Below are positions 7,993 through 18,181 of a DNA stretch of 26,931 bases, one piece after another. Where the stretch lies: positions 1-26,931 of the forward strand of contig JBBCAX010000220.1 in the NCBI GenBank assembly GCA_051382335.1. The letters run 5' to 3'. Position 1 is the stretch's first letter, and every line of letters begins with the position of its first letter. The position numbers and the translations under genes are program-made. The notes under the pieces are model-generated. The model had not been told where the DNA came from. It saw only the letters and a program-made list of their open reading frames with translations, and did not search any database. The DNA comes from Deltaproteobacteria bacterium TL4. GTDB taxonomy: Bacteria > SAR324 > NAC60-12.

Positions 7993-8058
7993 AAGGGGAG
8001 ATCTCGCTCTATCTTCCCTCGCCCTTTCTTCCCTCGCCCTTTCTTCCCTCGCTCTCGC
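7993..8058. repeat. Hairpin plus 15-nt tandem repeat between convergent genes (possible terminator)
   Basis: GGGGAGAT/ATCTTCCC stem; TCTTCCCTCGCCCTT repeated twice plus a partial copy. Confidence 0.55.
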
Positions 8059-8121: not shown

Positions 8122-9033
8122 TCATGCTTGTAAAACTTCGATCTTTCTTGACGTGAAAAATTGTGAAATTTTCTCCAGCTCAGCGTTGCTCATCGAAGCC
8201 AAAGAATTCAAAGAAGGACGCTGTTTTCCCAGGATCTCTACTTTTTCTGTGCCTAAATCGTGGTAGGGGAGAAGTGTGATTTGGTGGATGCTCATTGTTT
8301 GCAATAAATCACAGACTTCTTCCAGATTTTCCTGCCTGTCATTAATCCCAGGAATCACAGGCATACGGACCCAAAGATCCTGATTTTTATTTTTTTCCGC
8401 ATGCAGTCTTTTAAGGTTTTCAAGAATCCGACGGTTAGATTTTCCAGTCAATTCGATGTGTCTCTCCGTATTGACAACTTTGACGTCTATTAAGAAGAGA
8501 TCCACCCATTCAAAAAGGGGAGAAACTTTGGTGTAGGACCAGAATCCAGAGGTTTCAACCGCGACATGGATGCCCGTGCTTTTTACTTGGGGCAAGAATT
8601 TTTTTAAGAATTTCAACTGCGCAAAAGGTTCTCCCCCAGAAAGTGTGATCCCTCCCTCCTCTTGATAATAATCCCGATCACGGAGAATTTCGTGGAGTAG
8701 TTCCTGCGTAAGGTATGTCTTTGCCGCGGGAGATAAGGCTTTTGAAGGGCAGACGCGGGTACATTCCAGACAGGCATCACATTGGGTCCGGTCAATTGAA
8801 ATGTGATGCGAATCCGCGGAGATTGCGGATTGAGGACAGGCCTCAAGACAGTCGAGGCATAGAATGCATGCTTTTGCTTTGAAGGTCAGTTCATTTTTAA
8901 AATCGAGGGCTTCCGGATTGTGACACCATAGACAGTTCAAGGGACATCCCTTGAAAAAAATCGTAGAACGGATGCCTGGACCATCGTGGATCGAAAATCT
9001 TTGAATATCACAAATCAACGCGGAGTCAGTCAT
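8122..9033 (-). CDS. Glycyl-radical enzyme activating protein (radical SAM, ferredoxin insert)
   Basis: IQRFSIHDGPGIR, CPLNCLWCHNPE, two CxxCxxCxxxCP motifs, GGITLSGGEP, VETSG. Confidence 0.95.
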   Translation of the reverse strand: MTDSALICDIQRFSIHDGPGIRSTIFFKGCPLNCLWCHNPEALDFKNELTFKAKACILCLDCLEACPQSAISADSHHISIDRTQCDACLECTRVCPSKALSPAAKTYLTQELLHEILRDRDYYQEEGGITLSGGEPFAQLKFLKKFLPQVKSTGIHVAVETSGFWSYTKVSPLFEWVDLFLIDVKVVNTERHIELTGKSNRRILENLKRLHAEKNKNQDLWVRMPVIPGINDRQENLEEVCDLLQTMSIHQITLLPYHDLGTEKVEILGKQRPSLNSLASMSNAELEKISQFFTSRKIEVLQA

Positions 9034-9490
9034 CGTCTATAGCAAGAAAAGAGCTAAGGGCTGGATAATGTTCCAATTGTTCTCGAACATACCGTTCACA
9101 TAATCCAAGGAGATATCCGAGTTTGGAAAGAAAGTAGGTATTGCCCTTTTTATCGATTTTATTTTCAAACAAAAGACCAATGACATCTCCAGGATAGTCT
9201 TTCAAATGTTGGATGGTTCCTGGAATATCAAGAAAAATCAGTTCAAAATCCGGAGTTTCCGTTCGTCCTGGAACGATTCTGATTTTTTCATTAACAAAGA
9301 CCAGTTTCAGCGTCGCTTCTCCGGAGCGCAGTTGATAGGTCGCGTTAAAATTCTTTAAGGCTTTTTGAAACCGGGGCTCTTTCAGACGAACGATTTGGAA
9401 CAAAGCCCACAGGCTTAAGGCCAAAAGATACAACAGCGATTGATTTTGAAGTTTGGAGGGGTTTTGAAATAGTCGCATTAATGGTTTCAC
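9026..9490 (-). CDS. SCP2/sterol-carrier-like lipid-binding protein with N-terminal hydrophobic helix
   Basis: NATYQLRSG...LVFVNEKIRIVPG..ETPDFELIF.D...LLFENKIDKKGN resembles the SCP2 pattern. It overlaps the activase start by 8 nt. Confidence 0.6.
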   Translation of the reverse strand: MKPLMRLFQNPSKLQNQSLLYLLALSLWALFQIVRLKEPRFQKALKNFNATYQLRSGEATLKLVFVNEKIRIVPGRTETPDFELIFLDIPGTIQHLKDYPGDVIGLLFENKIDKKGNTYFLSKLGYLLGLCERYVREQLEHYPALSSFLAIDDD

Positions 9491-9520
9491 CGGTACCTTT
9501 ACGAAAAATTGGAGATTCTT

Positions 9521-11938
9521 CTAGAAGTGATCCTCAGTTCTTGTGATAATTTCATCCTGCATTTTACGGTTCAAGTCGCAAAAATAGGCGGTATATCCTG
9601 ACACCCGAACTAAAAGGTCACGGTAGGCATCAGGATTGAGTTGTGCGTGGATCAACGTTTCCCGATCATGGATCGTAAACTGTACCTGCATTCCACCTTG
9701 TTTGAAGTACCCCTTAATGAGCTGACTCAAAACCGCTAATTTCCCAGGAGTTTTAAGGAGGCTTCGAGATATTTTATGATTATTGGCAATCCCGTTATCC
9801 ATAAATTGATAAGGAAGTTTGGCGGTTGAAGAAAGAGAGGCGGTTGGGCCTTTTGAGGCAACCCCTGAAACGGGAGTCGCTCCGGACGATAGGGCTTCAC
9901 CCCTGCGTTTCCCATTAGGTAGAGCGCCTGTCAACATGCCCATTCCTGAATGCATGGTCGCGCTCCAATAACCGACGGTATAGTTACCTCCTCTGGGGTG
10001 TTCCTGTTGGTTAAAAAGTTGATGTATGTTTTGTACCACTTCAATCGCCCGCCGGTCCGCCAGCTCATGATCGGTTCCATATTTGGAGGCTTGCTTTTTC
10101 AAGAGGGTATAGGTTTTTTGATCCTGCTCAAAATTGGAGATTAAGGCACTTATCAACGTTTTTTTAGAGATTCGATGCTGCTCAAAAACCAACTCCTGTA
10201 AGGCGCAGAAGGAGTCAATCACATCAGCAAATCCAATAATCGCAATTCCCGTTGAATTGTATTTTGCTCCGCCTTGGGTGATGTCGCATCCAGATTCCAG
10301 GGTGCCTTGAATGAGTGACGAAAGTAAAGGGGTTGGATGGAGTTTTCCATGAGCTTCTGCAAAGCGTCGATTGCCATCAACGGCTAATTCAATCAAATAC
10401 TTGAGCTGTGTATCAAAAGCCTGCATAAAATCGTCAAAATTTTTGATCGCTTCCAGGCTTGGTGTTTTAGGACCAATTTTAAGACGAGACAAAGGATGCA
10501 CGCCCCCATACAGGGTGAGTTCGAGCACTGCCGCTAAATTGAGGATGATCGCACCTGTCGCTCCCATGGTTCTGCCGGCACTGTTGATTTCAACGCACCC
10601 AATCACGCCATAATCTCTGGCATCTTCAAGGGCAACGCCATTTTCAGTCAGGCTTTTGATGGTAACATCGTCATTAAAAAGAGCAGGCATGGCACCGGAT
10701 TGATAGATCGCTTCGACCAGTGCCCTGTGGTATTCCGGGGTCGATTCAGAGTGAACTCTTGCGGTGACATTAGGCTCTCTGGTTGAAAGAAGCGCGAGCA
10801 TTTTGAGCATGAGAAACGTTATTTCATTCACGCCATCCTTACCATCGGGGGTCAGACCTCCTAACGTTAGAGCCTGTGAGGTGCCGGTTCCGCCAACAAT
10901 ATCCTTGCCAGCTTCCGGTACTAAAGGAGTGTGGTCTGACATTTTTAAGTAAAAACAACCAATCAGCTCGCCGGCTTTCTGGGGAGTGATTTTTGAGGTT
11001 GCAAGATCGTTTTGATAAAAGGGGTTGAGAATTTGGTCCAGTCTCCCAAAACTCAAAGCGGTATTCACATTTTCCTGATGTAAGGCCACATGCAGCAGCC
11101 AAATCGTTTGTAACGCCTCTTCAAGAGTTCTTGCTGGTTTCGCGGGAACATTCCTTAATACAGAAGCCAGGTGTCGCAGTTCTTTTTCCCGTTCAGGGGA
11201 TGCGTGGACTGCCTTCTTCTCACAGGCAACCGCATAGCGCTCCGCAAAATCAATCACCGCCCTCAACGCCATTTGAGTCGCATGGTAGAATTCGATTTTT
11301 TCAGGCTCAACGGTTGATTTTTCTTTAAATCGTGCTTGCTCGATTAAATGTTCCAAGCCCATGTTGACGGCGGAACTGTAGTCAGGAATGATATGTGAAA
11401 TTCCGTTCGGTTTTGAGAGAATATAGAAAATCATCCGTTCAAGAATTCGCAGGCTTTCAGGATCATTTCCTTTTTTGCGGGCATACTCAAAAATCGTATC
11501 ATTCTGCCAAAAGGGAAAAATGTCTTCTGCCAAGAGATCAATGTCTGATTCTTTAATGTGTACAGGGTCAAATTTCCGTTTTGAAAGGTTGGGAAGTTCT
11601 GAAAAAATGGCCGCGCCAAAAAACTCAGGAAAAATCAGACAACCGAAACGGTGTTGGGTTGTGGAGCCTACAAGGAGTTCCTCCTCAAAAACAGGAACAG
11701 GTAAGTTTGCCAGAATATACTTTAAGGCTTTTGCCTGCTTCAGTACCATGCCGGCTTCACTCACTCCTTCTTTACGAAAAAACTCGGTTACCAATCGTGC
11801 CCGCTCAATACAAACCGTTTTCTGCGCATTAATATGTTCCGCACGCATTCTTTGCAAACGGGGAAAATGGCTGAGTGTGAGCGTTTTGACGTCAAACGGT
11901 TCACTTGCGATGGGAGATTGAGAAAAATTCGGTACCAT
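9521..11938 (-). CDS. Glycyl radical enzyme (non-PFL, CxE type), function unknown
   Basis: Gly loop LLVRVSGY, Cys loop DYGVIGCVE, IERAR, SFGRLDQ. Start reassigned to ATG 11938 after AAGGAG (805 aa). Confidence 0.95.
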   Translation of the reverse strand: MVPNFSQSPIASEPFDVKTLTLSHFPRLQRMRAEHINAQKTVCIERARLVTEFFRKEGVSEAGMVLKQAKALKYILANLPVPVFEEELLVGSTTQHRFGCLIFPEFFGAAIFSELPNLSKRKFDPVHIKESDIDLLAEDIFPFWQNDTIFEYARKKGNDPESLRILERMIFYILSKPNGISHIIPDYSSAVNMGLEHLIEQARFKEKSTVEPEKIEFYHATQMALRAVIDFAERYAVACEKKAVHASPEREKELRHLASVLRNVPAKPARTLEEALQTIWLLHVALHQENVNTALSFGRLDQILNPFYQNDLATSKITPQKAGELIGCFYLKMSDHTPLVPEAGKDIVGGTGTSQALTLGGLTPDGKDGVNEITFLMLKMLALLSTREPNVTARVHSESTPEYHRALVEAIYQSGAMPALFNDDVTIKSLTENGVALEDARDYGVIGCVEINSAGRTMGATGAIILNLAAVLELTLYGGVHPLSRLKIGPKTPSLEAIKNFDDFMQAFDTQLKYLIELAVDGNRRFAEAHGKLHPTPLLSSLIQGTLESGCDITQGGAKYNSTGIAIIGFADVIDSFCALQELVFEQHRISKKTLISALISNFEQDQKTYTLLKKQASKYGTDHELADRRAIEVVQNIHQLFNQQEHPRGGNYTVGYWSATMHSGMGMLTGALPNGKRRGEALSSGATPVSGVASKGPTASLSSTAKLPYQFMDNGIANNHKISRSLLKTPGKLAVLSQLIKGYFKQGGMQVQFTIHDRETLIHAQLNPDAYRDLLVRVSGYTAYFCDLNRKMQDEIITRTEDHF

Positions 11939-11950
11939 TATTTGAACTCC

Positions 11951-11974
11951 TTTTATCCGTGTCAATCCGTGAGC
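11951..11974 (-). repeat. CACGGAT-type dispersed repeat
   Basis: GCTCACGGATTGACACGGATAAAA, 23/24 identical to 26709-26732 (+). Confidence 0.75.
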
Positions 11975-12007
11975 TATTCTTAAAAACCGTCCCTGACAAG
12001 TAATGCG

Positions 12008-13807
12008 TTAATCAGCAAAGTACTCTGTTTTCATATTCACTGTTATGGGGTCATTATCCATTAGCCGTGTTGCCAGCCCTGCGATTTTAGGTAACTCATA
12101 GCTGAAGTAGTAGCGAAAGGTGAACAGTTTTCCCTGATAGAAATTTTGCTCAGACTCTGACTCAGTCCGGGTTAATGCTTCTTGTGCGGAAACTGCTTGC
12201 AAAAGCCACTGCCATGAAATGATAACCATTCCAAAAAATTCTAAATACAGCGTTGAATCCGCCAGAAAAACTTCAGGATTTTGTCCTTTGGAAATTAAAT
12301 GCATGGTGACTTCACTCAGTTTTTCAACCGCTTGCGTCAATTGCTCCGCATAAGGTTTTAGTTCTGAAATCGTTTGCGAGGAGTCGATGGTTTTTTGAAT
12401 CTCCTGACCCAAAAACATGACCGCTTTTCCGTTATTCATGGTAACTTTACGTCCTAAGAGATCCATCCCCTGTATTCCAGTGGTGCCTTCGTGTATGGGG
12501 TGAATCCGGATATCACGATAATACTGTTCCAGGGGAAAATCGTCACAGAACCCATAACCACCAAGGCATTGTAAGCCTTGACTTACCGATAGAATTCCCA
12601 TTTCTGAAGGAAAGGTCTTGGCCACAGGCGTCAAGATTTGCAGCAAATGGTTATATTTTTCCCGTTCTTCTCCTGCTAATGATTTTTCGAGATCATAATA
12701 AAGGCAGCATTGCGTCAACAAGGAAAGGGATCCTTCGATAATAGAGCGTTGAAACAAAAGCATTCTCTTCACATCTGTATGTTCAATAATGGGGATTTGA
12801 GGAACGTTGGGATCTTTTTGGGTGACGGGTCTGCCTTGGGTTCGTTCCCTGGTATATTCCAGCGAAGCATAATAAGCGGCAGTGGCAATTCCCGTTGCGC
12901 CCATTCCAACTTCCAGTCGAGCCTCATTCATCATTTGAAACATGTATTTCAGTCCATGCTGAGGTTCCCCCAACAAATAACCGTGGCAGTCGTTATTGTC
13001 TCCAATACTGAGCTGAAGCAGAGGGGCTCCTTTGTATCCCAGTTTATGGAAAACCTGGGAAGGATAAATATCATTGCTTTCAAGCTTGTTATGAGGTCCT
13101 AGCCTTTTTTTAGGCACTACGAATAAAGAAATCCCCCGTGTTCCAGAAGGCGCTCCTTCAATGCGCGCCAGCATTAAGTGGATGACATTATCGGTGCCAT
13201 TATGGTCTCCCGCGGAGGTAAATATTTTTTGTCCACGGATCAGATAATGTCCCGCGTTGGTGGCTTTTGCCACTGTGGTGAGATCCGCGAGAGAGCTTCC
13301 CGCATCCGGTTCAGTCAAGGCCATGGTGCCCTGCCATTCGCCGCTGATCATTTTGGGAACATAGCGTTGTTTTTGTTCTTCAGTTCCGCAAGCAAGAATT
13401 AAATGCGCGGCTCCCGCGGTTAAGTCAGCAAAAACGCTTCCAGAGTAATTGGCCGCGGCAAAAATAAATCGGCATAGATTGGATATCGTCAAAGGCAGTT
13501 GCGCCCCTCCTTCTTCTTCTGAGAAACTGGACGAAATCCAGCCGCCTTTACCGCATTCCCGCATGATGGTTTTTACAGCGGGATGGACGTGAACTTCCTG
13601 ATTAACCAACTCTGGAGGGTTGAGATCCATCTCTTTTAAAATGGGGAATAAATGAGTGTTCGCCAGTTGCAAAGAACTATCGAGGATCATGTCGAAAACT
13701 TCCTGGCTATGTTGCTGGTAATAGGCATGTTGGGTCAAAGACACAACGTCGAATACTTCATAAAGAAGAAATTGGATGTTTCTTTTGCTAAGATATTTTG
13801 TGGCCAT
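12008..13807 (-). CDS. Acyl-CoA dehydrogenase (long ~600-aa FadE5/DmdC-like group)
   Basis: GTMALTEPDAGS, GQKIFTSAGDH, QCLGGYGF, RIHPIHEGTTGIQGMDLLGRK. Confidence 0.95.
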   Translation of the reverse strand: MATKYLSKRNIQFLLYEVFDVVSLTQHAYYQQHSQEVFDMILDSSLQLANTHLFPILKEMDLNPPELVNQEVHVHPAVKTIMRECGKGGWISSSFSEEEGGAQLPLTISNLCRFIFAAANYSGSVFADLTAGAAHLILACGTEEQKQRYVPKMISGEWQGTMALTEPDAGSSLADLTTVAKATNAGHYLIRGQKIFTSAGDHNGTDNVIHLMLARIEGAPSGTRGISLFVVPKKRLGPHNKLESNDIYPSQVFHKLGYKGAPLLQLSIGDNNDCHGYLLGEPQHGLKYMFQMMNEARLEVGMGATGIATAAYYASLEYTRERTQGRPVTQKDPNVPQIPIIEHTDVKRMLLFQRSIIEGSLSLLTQCCLYYDLEKSLAGEEREKYNHLLQILTPVAKTFPSEMGILSVSQGLQCLGGYGFCDDFPLEQYYRDIRIHPIHEGTTGIQGMDLLGRKVTMNNGKAVMFLGQEIQKTIDSSQTISELKPYAEQLTQAVEKLSEVTMHLISKGQNPEVFLADSTLYLEFFGMVIISWQWLLQAVSAQEALTRTESESEQNFYQGKLFTFRYYFSYELPKIAGLATRLMDNDPITVNMKTEYFAD

Positions 13808-13831
13808 GAATCATTGCTCTTCGTGAGGGGG

Positions 13832-14590
13832 TTATTCTTTTTGGCTTAACTTTAGCGAGGCAATTAAAAACGCCTGATTTCGGTTTTCCAGGTGCAAGGC
13901 CTGTTCCAAGGAACTGACACCAAGATTCTGGTTGATGGCTTCTTTCGTCAAGCTCAGTCCAAATGGATTTTTATCGGCCATGATCTTGGCGATTTCCTGC
14001 GCCGTGTCCAGTAATTGTTCCTTGGGAACCATTCTGCTTGCGAAACCAAGGTGCATGGCCTCTTGCGCGGTCATGAATTCACCGGTAAGCAGGAACTCAT
14101 TCGCTCGTCCTGAACCAATGAGTTTAGGCAAGAAGTAACTGCTTGCCAAATCCGCGCCTCCAAGTCCAATGTTGATATACGCCGCATTAAACCTTGCCTC
14201 TGGAGTGATGATCCGCACATCGGAGGCCATTGCAAAACTAAACCCTGCTCCTGACGCGGCACCATGTACCGCGGCAATAATAGGTTGTGGGATGGTCCGC
14301 ATTTTATAATACAATTGAGAGGCTCTGCATTGGTATTTATAAATCACTTCAGGCGATTCCTTAAACAAGGGAAGTGCGGCTTCCTGCATATCCATGCCGG
14401 AACAAAAACCGCGGTTTCCTGCCCCTGTAAGAATCAGAACCATGGCATCGGAGTCATTGGATAGATAGTTGAATACCCGCTCCAGTTCTTCAATCATCGG
14501 CAGCGTTAACGCGTTGATGGAGTTGGGACGATTCAAGGTTAAGCGTCCGATACGGTTTTCTTGTTCATAGATGATGGTTTCGTAATTCAT
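13832..14590 (-). CDS. Crotonase-family enoyl-CoA hydratase/isomerase
   Basis: Start reassigned to ATG 14590 after AAGGAG (MNYETIIYE). Motifs LTLNRP..NAL, FCSGMDM, PQPIIAAVHGAASGAG. Confidence 0.93.
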   Translation of the reverse strand: MNYETIIYEQENRIGRLTLNRPNSINALTLPMIEELERVFNYLSNDSDAMVLILTGAGNRGFCSGMDMQEAALPLFKESPEVIYKYQCRASQLYYKMRTIPQPIIAAVHGAASGAGFSFAMASDVRIITPEARFNAAYINIGLGGADLASSYFLPKLIGSGRANEFLLTGEFMTAQEAMHLGFASRMVPKEQLLDTAQEIAKIMADKNPFGLSLTKEAINQNLGVSSLEQALHLENRNQAFLIASLKLSQKE

Positions 14591-14625
14591 AAGCTCCTTG
14601 GATGTGAATTTTTTAATAAAAAAAT

Positions 14626-14671
14626 CTCTGCGACCCTCTGCGACCCTCTGCGTCCTCTGCGTCTCTGCGTT
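14626..14671. repeat. Five tandem CTCTGCG (CGCAGAG) units in the operon leader
   Basis: Copies start at 14626, 14636, 14646, 14655 and 14663. Confidence 0.85.
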
Positions 14672-14725
14672 AAATAAAATAGCTCTAATTTTTAAGATAT
14701 AGCTTGTAAGGAATCGATTTATAAG

Positions 14726-14762
14726 GTTATATTCAGACAAGATACCAGTCATTTTAGGCCAA
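14726..14762 (-). promoter_or_regulatory. Candidate tandem AraC-family binding sites
   Basis: Minus-strand imperfect direct repeat TTGGCCTAAAATGAC / TTGTCTGAATATAAC at 22-bp spacing, between the divergent genes. Confidence 0.45.
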
Positions 14763-14790
14763 TGTTCGATTAACCTCATTGATTCAAAAT

Positions 14791-15840
14791 ATGGCGCATA
14801 AAACTTTGGATTCAATAAAAGAGCAAAGCACTCCCGCATGGCATCATTATGTGGTTACCGTAGAATATCCCTCTGTTTTGGTTAGCATGTTAGAAGCTCA
14901 AGGGGTTGAGTGTTCTGTTTTGTTGGAAGGGACAGGCATAAAACGAGAGTTGTTAAACCAGCCTGAAGTGTTTATTCCCTTTATCCAATATAAAAATCTG
15001 ATTGAGCGGGCACTGCTGTTATCAGGGAATCCTGGGCTGGGTTTGACTTTTGGACAACAGCTCTATATCTCCACGCATGGACCACTCAGTCATTTGTGGA
15101 TGAGCAGTTCCAATATGGAACAGGTGATGAGGCAAAGTGTAAAATACATCAAAATACGCAATCAAGTTCTGGATTTCAGTTTTTATACCAAGCAGGAACA
15201 AGCGGTCTTGAGGATGGAGTTACCCTTTGAAGAAGGGGTTTTATATCGGTTTTTGGTTGAAAATATCTTCAGTAGCATCTATGCCATTGCCACATTCCTG
15301 TTTGGCAGTTATCGTCCTTCTCTTAATATTGGTGTTGTCTATGATGAACCCGATTATAGTTCGATGTACCAACCCATTTTTAACGCTCCCCTCAAGTTCA
15401 ACCAAAGCTTCAACGAGATCTCTTTTCCCGCGGTTCTTCTTCAAAATAAGATTTCCTTGGCAAATCCTGCCTTAGCGAAGCTTGCGGAGCAACAATGTGA
15501 AGCGCTTCTGAAGTCGATCAATGAGCATGAAACCTTGTCTGAAAAAACGAGAAGACTCTTGCTCAACAACCCTGAACAGTTTGCGGGCTTGGATAAAGTC
15601 TCGGAAACATTACACCTTTCTGCTCGAACGTTACGACGACAATTAAAAAATGAGGGTTCTTCTTATCAAAAAATTCTGGATGATGTCCGGAAACAATTAG
15701 CCCTTCAGTATTTAGCCAACACCCATTGGACGGTTGAAGAAATTGCCAACTTGCTCCATTACAGTGATCCTTCCAACTTTAGACGTGCGTTCCGAAAATG
15801 GACAGGAACCGCCCCAGGAACCTATCGTCATTCTGCTTGA
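14791..15840 (+). CDS. AraC-family transcriptional regulator (OruR-like N-terminal domain)
   Basis: GNPGLGLTFG...HGPL; C-terminal LHLSARTLRRQLKNEGSSY...YSDPSNFRRAFRKWTG. Confidence 0.93.
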   Translation: MAHKTLDSIKEQSTPAWHHYVVTVEYPSVLVSMLEAQGVECSVLLEGTGIKRELLNQPEVFIPFIQYKNLIERALLLSGNPGLGLTFGQQLYISTHGPLSHLWMSSSNMEQVMRQSVKYIKIRNQVLDFSFYTKQEQAVLRMELPFEEGVLYRFLVENIFSSIYAIATFLFGSYRPSLNIGVVYDEPDYSSMYQPIFNAPLKFNQSFNEISFPAVLLQNKISLANPALAKLAEQQCEALLKSINEHETLSEKTRRLLLNNPEQFAGLDKVSETLHLSARTLRRQLKNEGSSYQKILDDVRKQLALQYLANTHWTVEEIANLLHYSDPSNFRRAFRKWTGTAPGTYRHSA

Positions 15841-15933: not shown

Positions 15934-16245
15934 ATGGAACAATTAAACCTATTGAGAAACCGTTTATTGGAAGGACATTTTGATTTCAGCCATCATGCAT
16001 TCAAGCGTTCTGTTGAACGGAATATCAGTTTTGAGGACATTCAGGAAGCAGGTAAACGAGTTGAAATTATTGAAGCGTATCCAGACGATAAATACTCCCC
16101 AAGTTGTTTATTACTGGGGTTTACCTTTAAAGGGAGACCATTGCATATTCAGGTTTCTCTCGGAAATTTGGAAGTCATCAGGATTATTACCCTTTATGAG
16201 CCTGATGAGAATGAATGGATTAATCACAAGGAGAGGAAGCGATGA
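15934..16245 (+). CDS. DUF4258 family protein (putative RelE-fold toxin)
   Basis: FSHHAFKR, IIEAYPDDKYSPSCLLLG, RPLHIQ, IITLYEPD..EW. Confidence 0.88.
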   Translation: MEQLNLLRNRLLEGHFDFSHHAFKRSVERNISFEDIQEAGKRVEIIEAYPDDKYSPSCLLLGFTFKGRPLHIQVSLGNLEVIRIITLYEPDENEWINHKERKR

Positions 16246-16502
16246 AATTCCAATGTCATGTTTGTGGTTCCCAAGAATCCAAAGACAATTTTACTCAAGA
16301 AGTTTTTCAGATTAATGAAAAACATGTATTGGTTGAACATATCCCAGCCTTGGTATGTCGTGCTTGTGGTGAAAAAGTATTTAGTGCGGATACCACCGAA
16401 ATGATTAGAAAAATGTTACATGGAGAAGTACATCCCATTAAAACGGTGCAGATGGATGTTTTTAATTTCAGTCAGCCTTTTGAAGAAGCCCATGCTGTAT
16501 AA
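16242..16502 (+). CDS. YgiT/MqsA-type zinc-finger protein (putative antitoxin)
   Basis: CHVCG...VEHIPALVCRACGE; ATGA overlap with the DUF4258 gene. Confidence 0.88.
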   Translation: MKFQCHVCGSQESKDNFTQEVFQINEKHVLVEHIPALVCRACGEKVFSADTTEMIRKMLHGEVHPIKTVQMDVFNFSQPFEEAHAV

Positions 16503-16619
16503 ACACCTCATGTAGGAACATTAATTTTTTTTTCAAGAGCATCAATGTGGGGGCTTGTGAATTTAATTAATAGATATTATCTTGTCCATTAAGTAAAATT
16601 ATAATCAATACGGGATATT

Positions 16620-16928
16620 ATGATATCTATTAAGGAATTATTAACACCAGGAGAAATACAAACAAAACTTGCTGAAATGTTTAAAAAAGCAAGGCTGGAA
16701 CAAACCCACAGCCGAGCAAAAGCCTCAAAGTTAACAGGCGTACCTGAAGCGACTTTAAAATCTTTTGAGAGAACAGGACAAATTTCACTCCGTCAATTCT
16801 TAATGCTCTGCCATGTTTATGGTGACCTGCGAGCCTCTGAATTATTATTTCCCCAAAAACAGAAGGTAACGCTTGAAGATGTTTTAGAAGTGAAGACCAA
16901 ACCTAATCGTCAAAGAGGACGATCATGA
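16620..16928 (+). CDS. HTH XRE-like antitoxin (HipB-like)
   Basis: KKARLEQTHSRAKASKLTGVPEATLKSFERTGQISL; ATGA overlap with hipA. Confidence 0.85.
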   Translation: MISIKELLTPGEIQTKLAEMFKKARLEQTHSRAKASKLTGVPEATLKSFERTGQISLRQFLMLCHVYGDLRASELLFPQKQKVTLEDVLEVKTKPNRQRGRS

Positions 16929-18181
16929 ATTCTGTCCAAGTCTACTTTCATGGAACTTCCTCTGGAGAATCCACATTATTGGGACATCTTGTCTACAAAG
17001 AGGGAATTGCCTTTTTTTCATTTGACCAGAATTTTCTAAAAACGGGACTCAATATCTCCCCCTTCAAATTAAAGCTTAGCACCGATTTACAGTCCGCGGA
17101 GCGAACACCTTTTAATGGCTTACAGGGCGTCTTTTCGGATTCACTTCCAGATGGTTGGGGAATGCTACTTATGGATCGACGCTTTCGAGCACTGGGAAGA
17201 AGTCTGGATACGGTGACACCGCTGGACCGTCTGGCTTACATGGGAAATCGCGCGATGGGTGCTTTATCCTATCAGCCGGATTTTTGCAAAGATGATGAAA
17301 GTGCTGGTCAAGGAATTGTTTCACTTGGCGGACTGGCTGAAGAATCGTTAGGCCTCTACCAAGGAACAGCCGTTGAAGTCCTCAGTCAATTGGCAATTAT
17401 TGGAGTTTCACCAGGTGGAGCAAGACCTAAAGCACTCATTGGACTAAAAGACGACATTGCCATTGGAGGCGTTGGGGATTTACCCGAAGGTTACGAGTAT
17501 TGGATTGTGAAATTTCCTACCGGCATCTCCGTAGAGGCAAAAGGAGAAGGAGCTGTGGAGTATGTATATTCCAAATTAGCACGTCAAGCTGGGATCACCT
17601 TTCCTGAAACACGTTTATATCCTTCTAAAAATACCTCTGGCTACTTTGCTGTGAAACGCTTTGATAGAGGCACCAACCACCAGAGATTCCATCTCCATTC
17701 GCTGGCAGGGTTAGTGGATGCGGACTTCAGGCTTCCTGATTGTGATTATGAGATCTTGTTAAGAGTGACCAGTCATCTTACAAAATCCCATGCTGATTCA
17801 TGCCAGGTTTTTAGACGAATGATCTTCAATATTCTTACTGGCAACAGAGATGATCATACCAAGAATTTTAGCTTTTTAATGAAACCCGACGGAATTTGGA
17901 CACTCTCACCAGCATACGATGTTACCTTTAACTTTGGAATCAATGGTCAACACTCAATGTCGGTTTCAGGCTATGGAAAAGAAATTCCGCTGAAAGCCAT
18001 CCAAAAAATAGCCAACCTGATTCCTTTAAACCCCTCAAAGGTCACGGAGATTATAGAAGAAGTATCAGACGCATTATCCTCATGGGATCAATTATCGAAA
18101 GAATATGAGGTTCCGAATACTATGATAAAAGATATTGGTAGGTATCTGAACACAGAACGCCTTCGACTATCGAAGCACTGA
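16925..18181 (+). CDS. hipA: HipA-family kinase toxin
   Basis: DSLPDGWG, SPGGARPKA, WIVKF, VKRFDR, NRDDHTKN, LSPAYD. Confidence 0.93.
   Translation: MNSVQVYFHGTSSGESTLLGHLVYKEGIAFFSFDQNFLKTGLNISPFKLKLSTDLQSAERTPFNGLQGVFSDSLPDGWGMLLMDRRFRALGRSLDTVTPLDRLAYMGNRAMGALSYQPDFCKDDESAGQGIVSLGGLAEESLGLYQGTAVEVLSQLAIIGVSPGGARPKALIGLKDDIAIGGVGDLPEGYEYWIVKFPTGISVEAKGEGAVEYVYSKLARQAGITFPETRLYPSKNTSGYFAVKRFDRGTNHQRFHLHSLAGLVDADFRLPDCDYEILLRVTSHLTKSHADSCQVFRRMIFNILTGNRDDHTKNFSFLMKPDGIWTLSPAYDVTFNFGINGQHSMSVSGYGKEIPLKAIQKIANLIPLNPSKVTEIIEEVSDALSSWDQLSKEYEVPNTMIKDIGRYLNTERLRLSKH

Follow-up and report, generated by a model that had tools for sequence, protein, structure and literature searches.

A glycyl radical enzyme clade with an SCP2-fold partner, probably a small subunit, and its possible role in anaerobic lipid degradation

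Why should a glycyl radical enzyme (GRE) be encoded among acyl-CoA genes and next to a small protein resembling SCP2? The question is raised by a contig of Deltaproteobacteria bacterium TL4 (JBBCAX010000220.1, positions 1 to 26,931; the window is this whole stretch of 26,931 nucleotides), in which the list of open reading frames (ORFs) places a minus-strand run of five genes at 8122-14590 with an AraC gene divergent beside it. A preliminary description of this DNA had noted the five co-oriented genes with their short gaps and overlap, the RVSGY motif and single-Cys GCVE loop of the GRE, and an 'SCP2-like' gene between the GRE and its activase; all are present. We find that the GRE belongs to an uncharacterised clade within the known superfamily, of which an SCP2-fold protein is the fixed partner and probably the small subunit. 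The argument turns on the following genes and residues.

9521..11938, minus strand: glycyl radical enzyme (GRE), 805 aa, matched by Pfam PF02901 and PF01228
10589..10597, minus strand: Cys loop C448-V-E450 (CxE) of the GRE, read from the sequence
9596..9598, minus strand: radical glycine G781 in RVSGY of the GRE, read from the sequence and aligned to G763 of glycerol dehydratase (GD)
11393..11395, minus strand: H182 of the GRE, counterpart of GD His164 and proposed acid for the departing hydroxyl
9965..9967, minus strand: W658 of the GRE, the clade signature at GD Tyr640, from the alignment
9026..9478, minus strand: SCP2-fold protein, predicted small subunit of the GRE, 150 aa, with an alternative GTG start at 9490
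8122..9033, minus strand: glycyl-radical activating enzyme, 303 aa, radical SAM with CxxxCxxC and a ferredoxin-type insert, matched by Pfam and TIGR02494

The GRE and small genes are 30-42 bp apart, depending on the start chosen, and the small and activase genes share 8 bp. A homolog search with the GRE gave 616 matches among 8000 candidates. Among the 120 listed were GREs with ∼170-210 extra N-terminal or ∼180 extra C-terminal residues, and a hidden Markov model (HMM) of these fused extensions also finds the gene directly after the GRE in most metagenome loci. The neighbourhood census kept 80 metagenome loci of 361, and 330 GRE cores (347 before de-duplication) were placed in a FastTree phylogeny; sequences for both were gathered with clade queries. 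References in the tree were GD (L112, recognized by neighbours and residue numbering), HypD (L113) and YbiW (L115), together with CutC and PflD (L114 and L116, assigned from signature and context); BSS, IslA, IAD, HPAD and PFL2 lay outside it. Every SCP2-positive GRE fell into one clade of 177 tips, with a FastTree support of 1.0 and an SH-aLRT of 96 in a second tree of 46 taxa (IQ-TREE, fast mode). SCP2 is adjacent for 44 of these tips, N-terminally fused in 36, C-terminally fused in 7 and missing from 5, the other 85 being of unknown context. The 68 clade loci comprise 45 with a separate SCP2 gene, 17 with a fusion and 6 with neither; after removal of four duplicates, 59 of the 64 distinct loci have SCP2 either next to the GRE or fused to it, and four of the five SCP2-less loci (L063, L087, L095 and L109) end at contig ends. 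None of the 29 outgroup loci, many with flanks of ≤ 1.5 kb, yielded an SCP2 gene, and SCP2 was found in 14 of 20 loci with partial GREs that were kept outside the tree. The SCP2-fold protein is a fixed partner of the GRE clade. Source labels among the matches listed include Desulfobacterium sp. N47, Desulfobacterales, Dethiobacteria, Syntrophomonadaceae, Freyarchaeota and Hodarchaeota. A GRE of a sister group (36% identity) occurs with an activase and no SCP2 on Moraxella osloensis plasmids (L111, AP031477.1), which is unexpected in an aerobe.

The small protein has no Pfam or NCBIfam match (PF02036 included), and a word-indexed homolog search returned only the protein itself among 141 candidates. 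Its model (pLDDT 86, built from a 55-sequence alignment) had UbiJ-SCP2 as the top Foldseek match (E 4e-6), with alkylsulfatase SCP2 domains and SCP2 proteins also foremost. The top 9 VIA-align rows were all SCP2-fold, at modest Z scores of 7.9-9.2 and an rmsd of 2.8-4.9 Å over 100-116 residues. An HMM made from 12 GRE-fused extensions matches the window's small protein (E 3e-10), Pfam SCP2 matches at E ≤ 0.1 occur in 11 of 55 family members (best 1.7e-6), and an Atlas feature search led to SCP2-containing clusters at 0.92-0.93, in which 14-19% of the members have SCP2. The predicted SCP2 fold is sound: model, Foldseek, VIA-align and fused-domain HMM all back the resemblance first noted. We infer that the protein may bind lipid.

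Modelling of the GRE–SCP2 complex, proposed in the preliminary description, gave a score of 0.92 compared with 0.00 for the best of 3 controls; among solved complexes 116 of 157 attain the mark applied, as against 2 of 215 mismatched pairs, counts that are only rough since our own alignments were used. The runs share at least 92% of contacts and the partner has a pLDDT of at least 82. In the model the GRE contributes residues 109-121, 133-154, 159, 167-170, 341-343, 483-486 and 669 to the interface, and the SCP2 side is formed by the family's conserved GNxNYxxKFGF motif, with Tyr122 of the SCP2 protein predicted to contact GRE residues 112-116. Clade-specific conservation is concentrated in the interface columns (mean excess 0.41 vs 0.17); at position 112 of the GRE, 98% of the clade has Trp, compared with 10% outside it, and the window GRE has Phe. 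The complex model supports binding, without demonstrating it, and the small subunit that the preliminary description had thought missing here is probably this SCP2 protein. No GRE–SCP2 structure was found among the PDB sequence and fold matches of either protein. In BSS, a channel runs between the cap helix, helix 8' and the β1 loop and is covered by the β subunit, according to the available part of a 2026 review of the GRE superfamily (PMC13450708). Because residues 159-170 precede His182 and residues 341-343 precede the GD 333-339 loop, they may be the equivalents of the cap helix and helix 8', respectively, and the predicted interface is presumed to lie near the substrate channel.

The GRE has the features of the PFL-like GREs, namely a barrel fold, a Cys loop (GCVEI, with C448 and E450), the C-terminal RVxGY glycine (G781) and a cognate radical-SAM activase. 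Thirteen NCBIfam families match it and the cut-off is reached for none of them. Scores were 618 bits for PFL2-3 (cut-off 678), 471 for HypD (NF043068; 1100), 438 for CutC (TIGR04394; 1050) and 454 (HpsG) and 451 bits for the C–S lyase/DHPS dehydratase models (IslA, HpsG, HpfG; cut-offs 1000), with the decarboxylase models lowest (IAD 324, cut-off 1100; HPAD 232, cut-off 1150). In these enzymes, two Arg and one Gln anchor the sulfonate. The cysteinolate pathway uses no GRE in the portion of its literature that was available. Pyruvate formate-lyase was rejected as an identity, the loop being GCVE and not adjacent CC and TIGR01255 giving 162 bits against a cut-off of 994. The activase scores 334 bits to TIGR02494 (cut-off 174) and stays under every enzyme-specific activase cut-off. 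The best PDB sequence matches of the GRE are A. fulgidus PFL2 (474 bits) and GD (473 bits). Its model (pLDDT 91) is closest in fold to GD (1r8w), A. fulgidus PFL2 and propanediol dehydratases, and MASS and BSS come last among the fold matches listed, at ≤ 24% identity. In the tree the GRE falls in a clade apart from the characterised references, as the preliminary description had anticipated. A search of the genome contigs with the single protein gave only three distant GREs (31% identity); a GRE match at E ≤ 1e-100 was present in 0 of 44 same-family genomes and in 7 of 87 relatives. The window's genome has six GRE genes, two of which are clade members with N-terminal SCP2, at G000:C168:55000-58032 (no adjoining activase) and G000:C53:1308-4358 (adjoined by TetR and activase genes). 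A 1119-aa protein at G000:C168:70974-74333 joins an activase-like N-terminus to a GRE outside the SCP2 clade, and similar long forms occur among P0143 and P0205.

Which reaction might such an enzyme catalyse? Active sites were compared in GD residue numbering, using an alignment that included the 177 clade members. The Cys and Glu of the CxE loop (GD Cys433 and Glu435) are both kept in 172 of the 177, and the counterpart of GD His164 is His in 171. In GD, glycerol is bound by His281, Ser282, Tyr339, Asp447 and Tyr640. These become T293, A294, S354, G462 and W658 in the window GRE; clade-wide, His281 is replaced by Met/Val/Ala/Leu/Thr, Ser282 by Ala/Gly, Tyr339 by Asn/Asp/Val/Ser and Asp447 by Gly/Ala/Ser/Asn, and Trp occupies the Tyr640 position in 96% of the clade vs 11% of the outgroup. 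Glu435 of GD is the base and His164 the acid (PMC13450708, available part). Judging from which GD residues are kept and which replaced, the pair needed for loss of a vicinal hydroxyl is retained and the distal side of the pocket has become smaller and less polar, a pattern that would be as expected for a diol or β-alkoxy alcohol carrying a tail. Five clade members, all SCP2 fusions (P0144, P0166, P0176, P0228 and P0230), are without the catalytic Cys and/or Glu and may be inactive paralogs.

The preliminary description had taken CxE as typical of eliminases. By this class criterion, and because the closest folds are C–O eliminases, the GRE appears eliminase-like, and elimination would follow by inference. 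The motif is not exclusive, and CxE alone is indecisive because HPAD (Cys503/Glu505) and IAD (Glu502) also use such a Glu. Both GD (C. butyricum, 1R8W/1R9D) and the GRE propanediol dehydratases (5I2G, 9RCO) have the fold (TM 0.93), the CxE loop and the His164 equivalent in common with our enzyme, as well as a separate ferredoxin-type activase, and ketyl-type 1,2-elimination is likely common to all. The window GRE differs from GD (33% identity) in the five replaced glycerol ligands, its separate clade and its obligate SCP2 partner, and there are no alcohol dehydrogenase or dha genes nearby.

The reading that we favour, to which we give about an even chance, is that the GRE performs 1,2-elimination at the polar head of an SCP2-delivered lipid and so feeds β-oxidation. 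The SCP2-fold protein would dock on the GRE and hand over a long-chain lipid, and the activase would put the radical on Gly781. Cys448 would then take a hydrogen from the carbinol carbon, Glu450 would deprotonate the hydroxyl of that carbon, and His182 would aid departure of the neighbouring hydroxyl or alkoxy group, giving an aldehyde or ketone. Long-chain vicinal diols, for instance monoalkyl- or monoacyl-glycerols or alkane-1,2-diols, would be the most likely substrates. In the window's subclade only, further processing of the product, once oxidised and CoA-activated, would fall to an isomerase-type crotonase and the ACAD (acyl-CoA dehydrogenase), with aldehyde dehydrogenase and ligase supplied from elsewhere in the genome. 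The two subclade genes are these.

12008..13807, minus strand: ACAD, a long form of 599 aa, with four ACAD domains in Pfam including Acyl-CoA_dh_C and the catalytic IHEGT motif
13832..14590, minus strand: crotonase-family protein, 252 aa, matched by Pfam ECH_1, with an invariant GGAD motif

Gaps of 24 bp and 69 bp separate crotonase from ACAD and ACAD from GRE. The crotonase start was corrected to the ATG at 14590, which is preceded by AAGGAG; a 335-aa frame reaching 14839 was rejected as an over-extension into the AraC gene. Among the 80 metagenome loci, crotonase orthologs (38-50% identity) flank the GRE in four (L032, L038, L051 and L072) and ACAD orthologs (52-61% identity; own-genome paralogs only 27-37%) in three (L032, L051 and L072). 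All crotonase/ACAD-flanked loci lie within the window's subclade (16 distinct loci, five partial GREs being placed by identity), with three different gene orders and a GC content of 52-64% vs ∼ 44% in the window. A crotonase of 71% identity at G076:C91, ∼ 7.6 kb from a fused GRE and in a ligase/ACAD cluster of its own, was not counted as linkage. The conserved neighbourhood expected by the preliminary description thus held for SCP2 and failed for crotonase and ACAD, which are a recurrent accessory of the subclade and not part of the core. The closest PDB entries are 6ijc (which we take to be DmdC), 8pns and FadE5 6kse for the ACAD, and 3sll and 5e0n (presumably a monofunctional isomerase) for the crotonase. 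Both canonical hydratase glutamates are absent from the crotonase, which has Ser and Tyr at those columns compared with 5z7r and a single Asp146, so that it does not fit a canonical enoyl-CoA hydratase. The GGAD motif is invariant in an alignment of five GRE-linked orthologs, and the protein is likely of the enoyl-CoA isomerase type. The whole genome yields 16 crotonase and 9 aldehyde dehydrogenase matches, and a search of it for tungsten aldehyde oxidoreductase (PF01314) came up empty.

Other neighbours are sporadic. GntR/FCD regulators precede four subclade loci, and Ntn amidases stand beside two (AAT in L033, penicillin amidase in L040). SDRs and aldehyde dehydrogenase (3 loci) also occur, as do, in the wider clade, DUF6765 (8 loci), phosphoesterase-like genes and flavin oxidoreductases. 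A protein of 600-840 aa with no Pfam family lies beside GRE–SCP2–activase in L057, L062, L066, L069, L105 and L108, often with DUF6765; its closest named Atlas clusters are GXWXG/DUF4334, at 0.76 only. In L119 (G079:C47:3000-20000), a fused GRE–SCP2 lies immediately downstream of a set of 2-hydroxyacyl-CoA dehydratase genes, made up of two HGD-D subunits and two BadF/BcrA-type activators.

Several observations weigh against the favoured lipid elimination. Most loci lack ACAD and crotonase, among them L033 and L041, where 10 kb of sequence flanks the GRE in either direction; clusters without an adjacent GRE also hold crotonase orthologs, at 54-71% identity; many other neighbour genes are unrelated to lipids; and the operon has no aldehyde dehydrogenase, CoA ligase or lipase. 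The partnership has one real miss, L035/L036, whose clade GRE is followed by no SCP2 and no activase over the 3-5 kb downstream, and the clade-derived SCP2 HMMs could miss distant SCP2s in the outgroup loci, many of them short-flanked. The complex model and the conservation test use common alignments and are not independent. Finally, the SCP2 fold alone is no proof of lipid binding because alkylsulfatases, Eis acetyltransferases and cyclopropane synthases carry it too.

The explanation that competes best, itself unlikely, makes the SCP2-fold protein a structural or gating subunit that carries no lipid, comparable to the β and γ subunits of BSS, and lets the GRE act on a smaller alcohol of moderate hydrophobicity, such as a glycol ether or aryl-glycerol ether, with elimination of water or of an alkoxy/aryloxy group. 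Small subunits of known GREs cover hydrophobic patches or plug a channel, and the BSS/MASS β subunit covers the channel for a hydrophobic substrate (PMC13450708, available part). The conserved SCP2 motif is taken up by the predicted protein interface, and most loci lack β-oxidation genes. A small subunit seated on the catalytic subunit is indeed known from BSS, MASS and HPAD, resembling the predicted SCP2 placement. Those subunits are HiPIP- or rubredoxin-like Fe proteins, whereas the fold recruited here is SCP2, with no Fe-binding motif and often fused; BSS and MASS also differ from the clade in their fumarate arginine. Acyl-CoA genes recur in the subclade, and conserved aromatic/aliphatic SCP2 positions remain outside the interface. 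The same fold is attached to, or partners, enzymes for hydrophobic substrates in UbiJ-SCP2 and the alkylsulfatases SdsA1 and YjcS, at 12-20% identity and with partners other than a radical enzyme. The only GREs credited with small subunits in the available part of the review (PMC13450708) are HPAD, BSS and MASS, and each of these subunits is an iron protein; 'SCP', 'sterol' and 'ether' are mentioned nowhere in that part. Our literature search for GREs with SCP2 or sterol carrier, outside of which lay subscription papers and supplements, found nothing relevant.

A more specific version of the favoured lipid elimination, rather unlikely in our judgement, has GRE–SCP2 as an oxygen-independent ether-lipid cleaver that takes monoalkyl glycerol ethers from SCP2. 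A fatty alcohol might be expelled directly from the ketyl radical; alternatively, dehydration would give a 3-alkoxypropanal, from which the DmdC-like dehydrogenase and the crotonase would form an enol ether and hydrolyse it. In the DmdC/DmdD methylmercaptopropionate route, an ACAD and a crotonase act in a way that could likewise cleave 3-alkoxypropionyl-CoA. Against this parallel, general fatty acyl-CoA dehydrogenases (FadE5) belong to the family of this ACAD as well, the glutamate pair is missing from the crotonase and the operon lacks a ligase.

Distinctly unlikely is a C–N lyase acting on amino-alcohol lipids (sphingoid bases, N-acylethanolamines), in effect CutC-like chemistry on a long chain. 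It would fit the CxE loop, the Thr/Ser found at Cys+13 in the clade as in CutC, the Ntn amidases of L033 and L040 and the phosphoesterase-like, DUF6765 and flavin oxidoreductase neighbours, which are, however, sporadic. The alignment shows His at GD position 164 in place of CutC's Asp, and HypD residues Asp278, Asp339 and Phe340 (PMC7077986, available part) are absent from clade GREs.

Other radical chemistry on a lipid, such as an isomerisation, or the decarboxylation of an unsaturated acid, is highly unlikely: the CxE glutamate of HPAD and IAD and the adjoining isomerase-type crotonase would suit it, but the decarboxylase models score far below HypD, the His164 equivalent is kept and the closest folds are eliminases.

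For alkyl- or benzylsuccinate synthesis, the landmark in BSS is the fumarate-binding Arg508, which lies at Cys+15 counted from Cys493 (PMC11194802, available part). Judged by offset, there being no BSS row in the alignment, the clade has no Arg at Cys+12 to +15, and Cys+15 is Ala/Ser/Cys. A. fulgidus PFL2/PflD (2F3O), of debated function, has a similar ATNQAVT loop and CVE, but keeps Tyr/Asp at GD 640/447, as against Trp and Gly/Ala/Ser in the clade, and it is without the clade's W-P motif at 112-113. Coupling of fumarate to hydrocarbons or fatty chains, which has been suggested for PFL2/PflD and Asgard homologs, is extremely unlikely here: PFL2 is the best PDB sequence match, single-Cys similarity has led to the naming of PflD-like Asgard GREs as Ass/Bss (PMC8163825, available part) and a hydrophobic carrier with an ACAD would suit it, but the arginine is missing, CVE stands where BSS has Cys-Met, BSS and MASS are the weakest listed fold matches, the operon has no Fe–S small-subunit ORF, and PFL2 is itself unsettled in function and lacks the clade's Trp.

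The operon is bordered by one further gene.

∼14791..15840, plus strand: divergent AraC-family regulator, matched by Pfam Arabinose_bd (PF12625, N-terminus) and HTH_18

Its best NCBIfam match is CypR, at 196 bits under a cut-off of 500, and no AraC homologs were found among the recurrent neighbour clusters of metagenome GRE loci. Its position makes it a probable regulator of these genes. Scans for FNR boxes, promoters and terminators produced no signal above chance. Short tandem repeats with 10-bp and 15-bp units lie at 14626-14670, in the divergent promoter region, and at 8003-8052, just beyond the operon end. Further out, the window has a complex tandem array at 325-1045 (units of 17, 28 and 61-90 bp, core TTTGGTACTCCAGG) and, at 15934-18181, toxin–antitoxin-like genes (DUF4258 accompanied by a small zinc-finger-like gene, followed by a small gene resembling a regulator and by a HipA-like kinase).

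With its probable SCP2 subunit, this widespread clade brings a new architecture to the GREs and probably a new substrate class. The combination of Trp at GD 640, absence of the fumarate Arg and an SCP2 partner is its signature and warns against annotating members as alkylsuccinate synthases. If members do act on lipids, the clade would mark an undescribed step of anaerobic lipid degradation. Should the ether-lipid reading prove true, the GREs would gain their first class acting on lipids, and through it anaerobes of sediments, Asgard archaea among them, would recycle ether membrane lipids.

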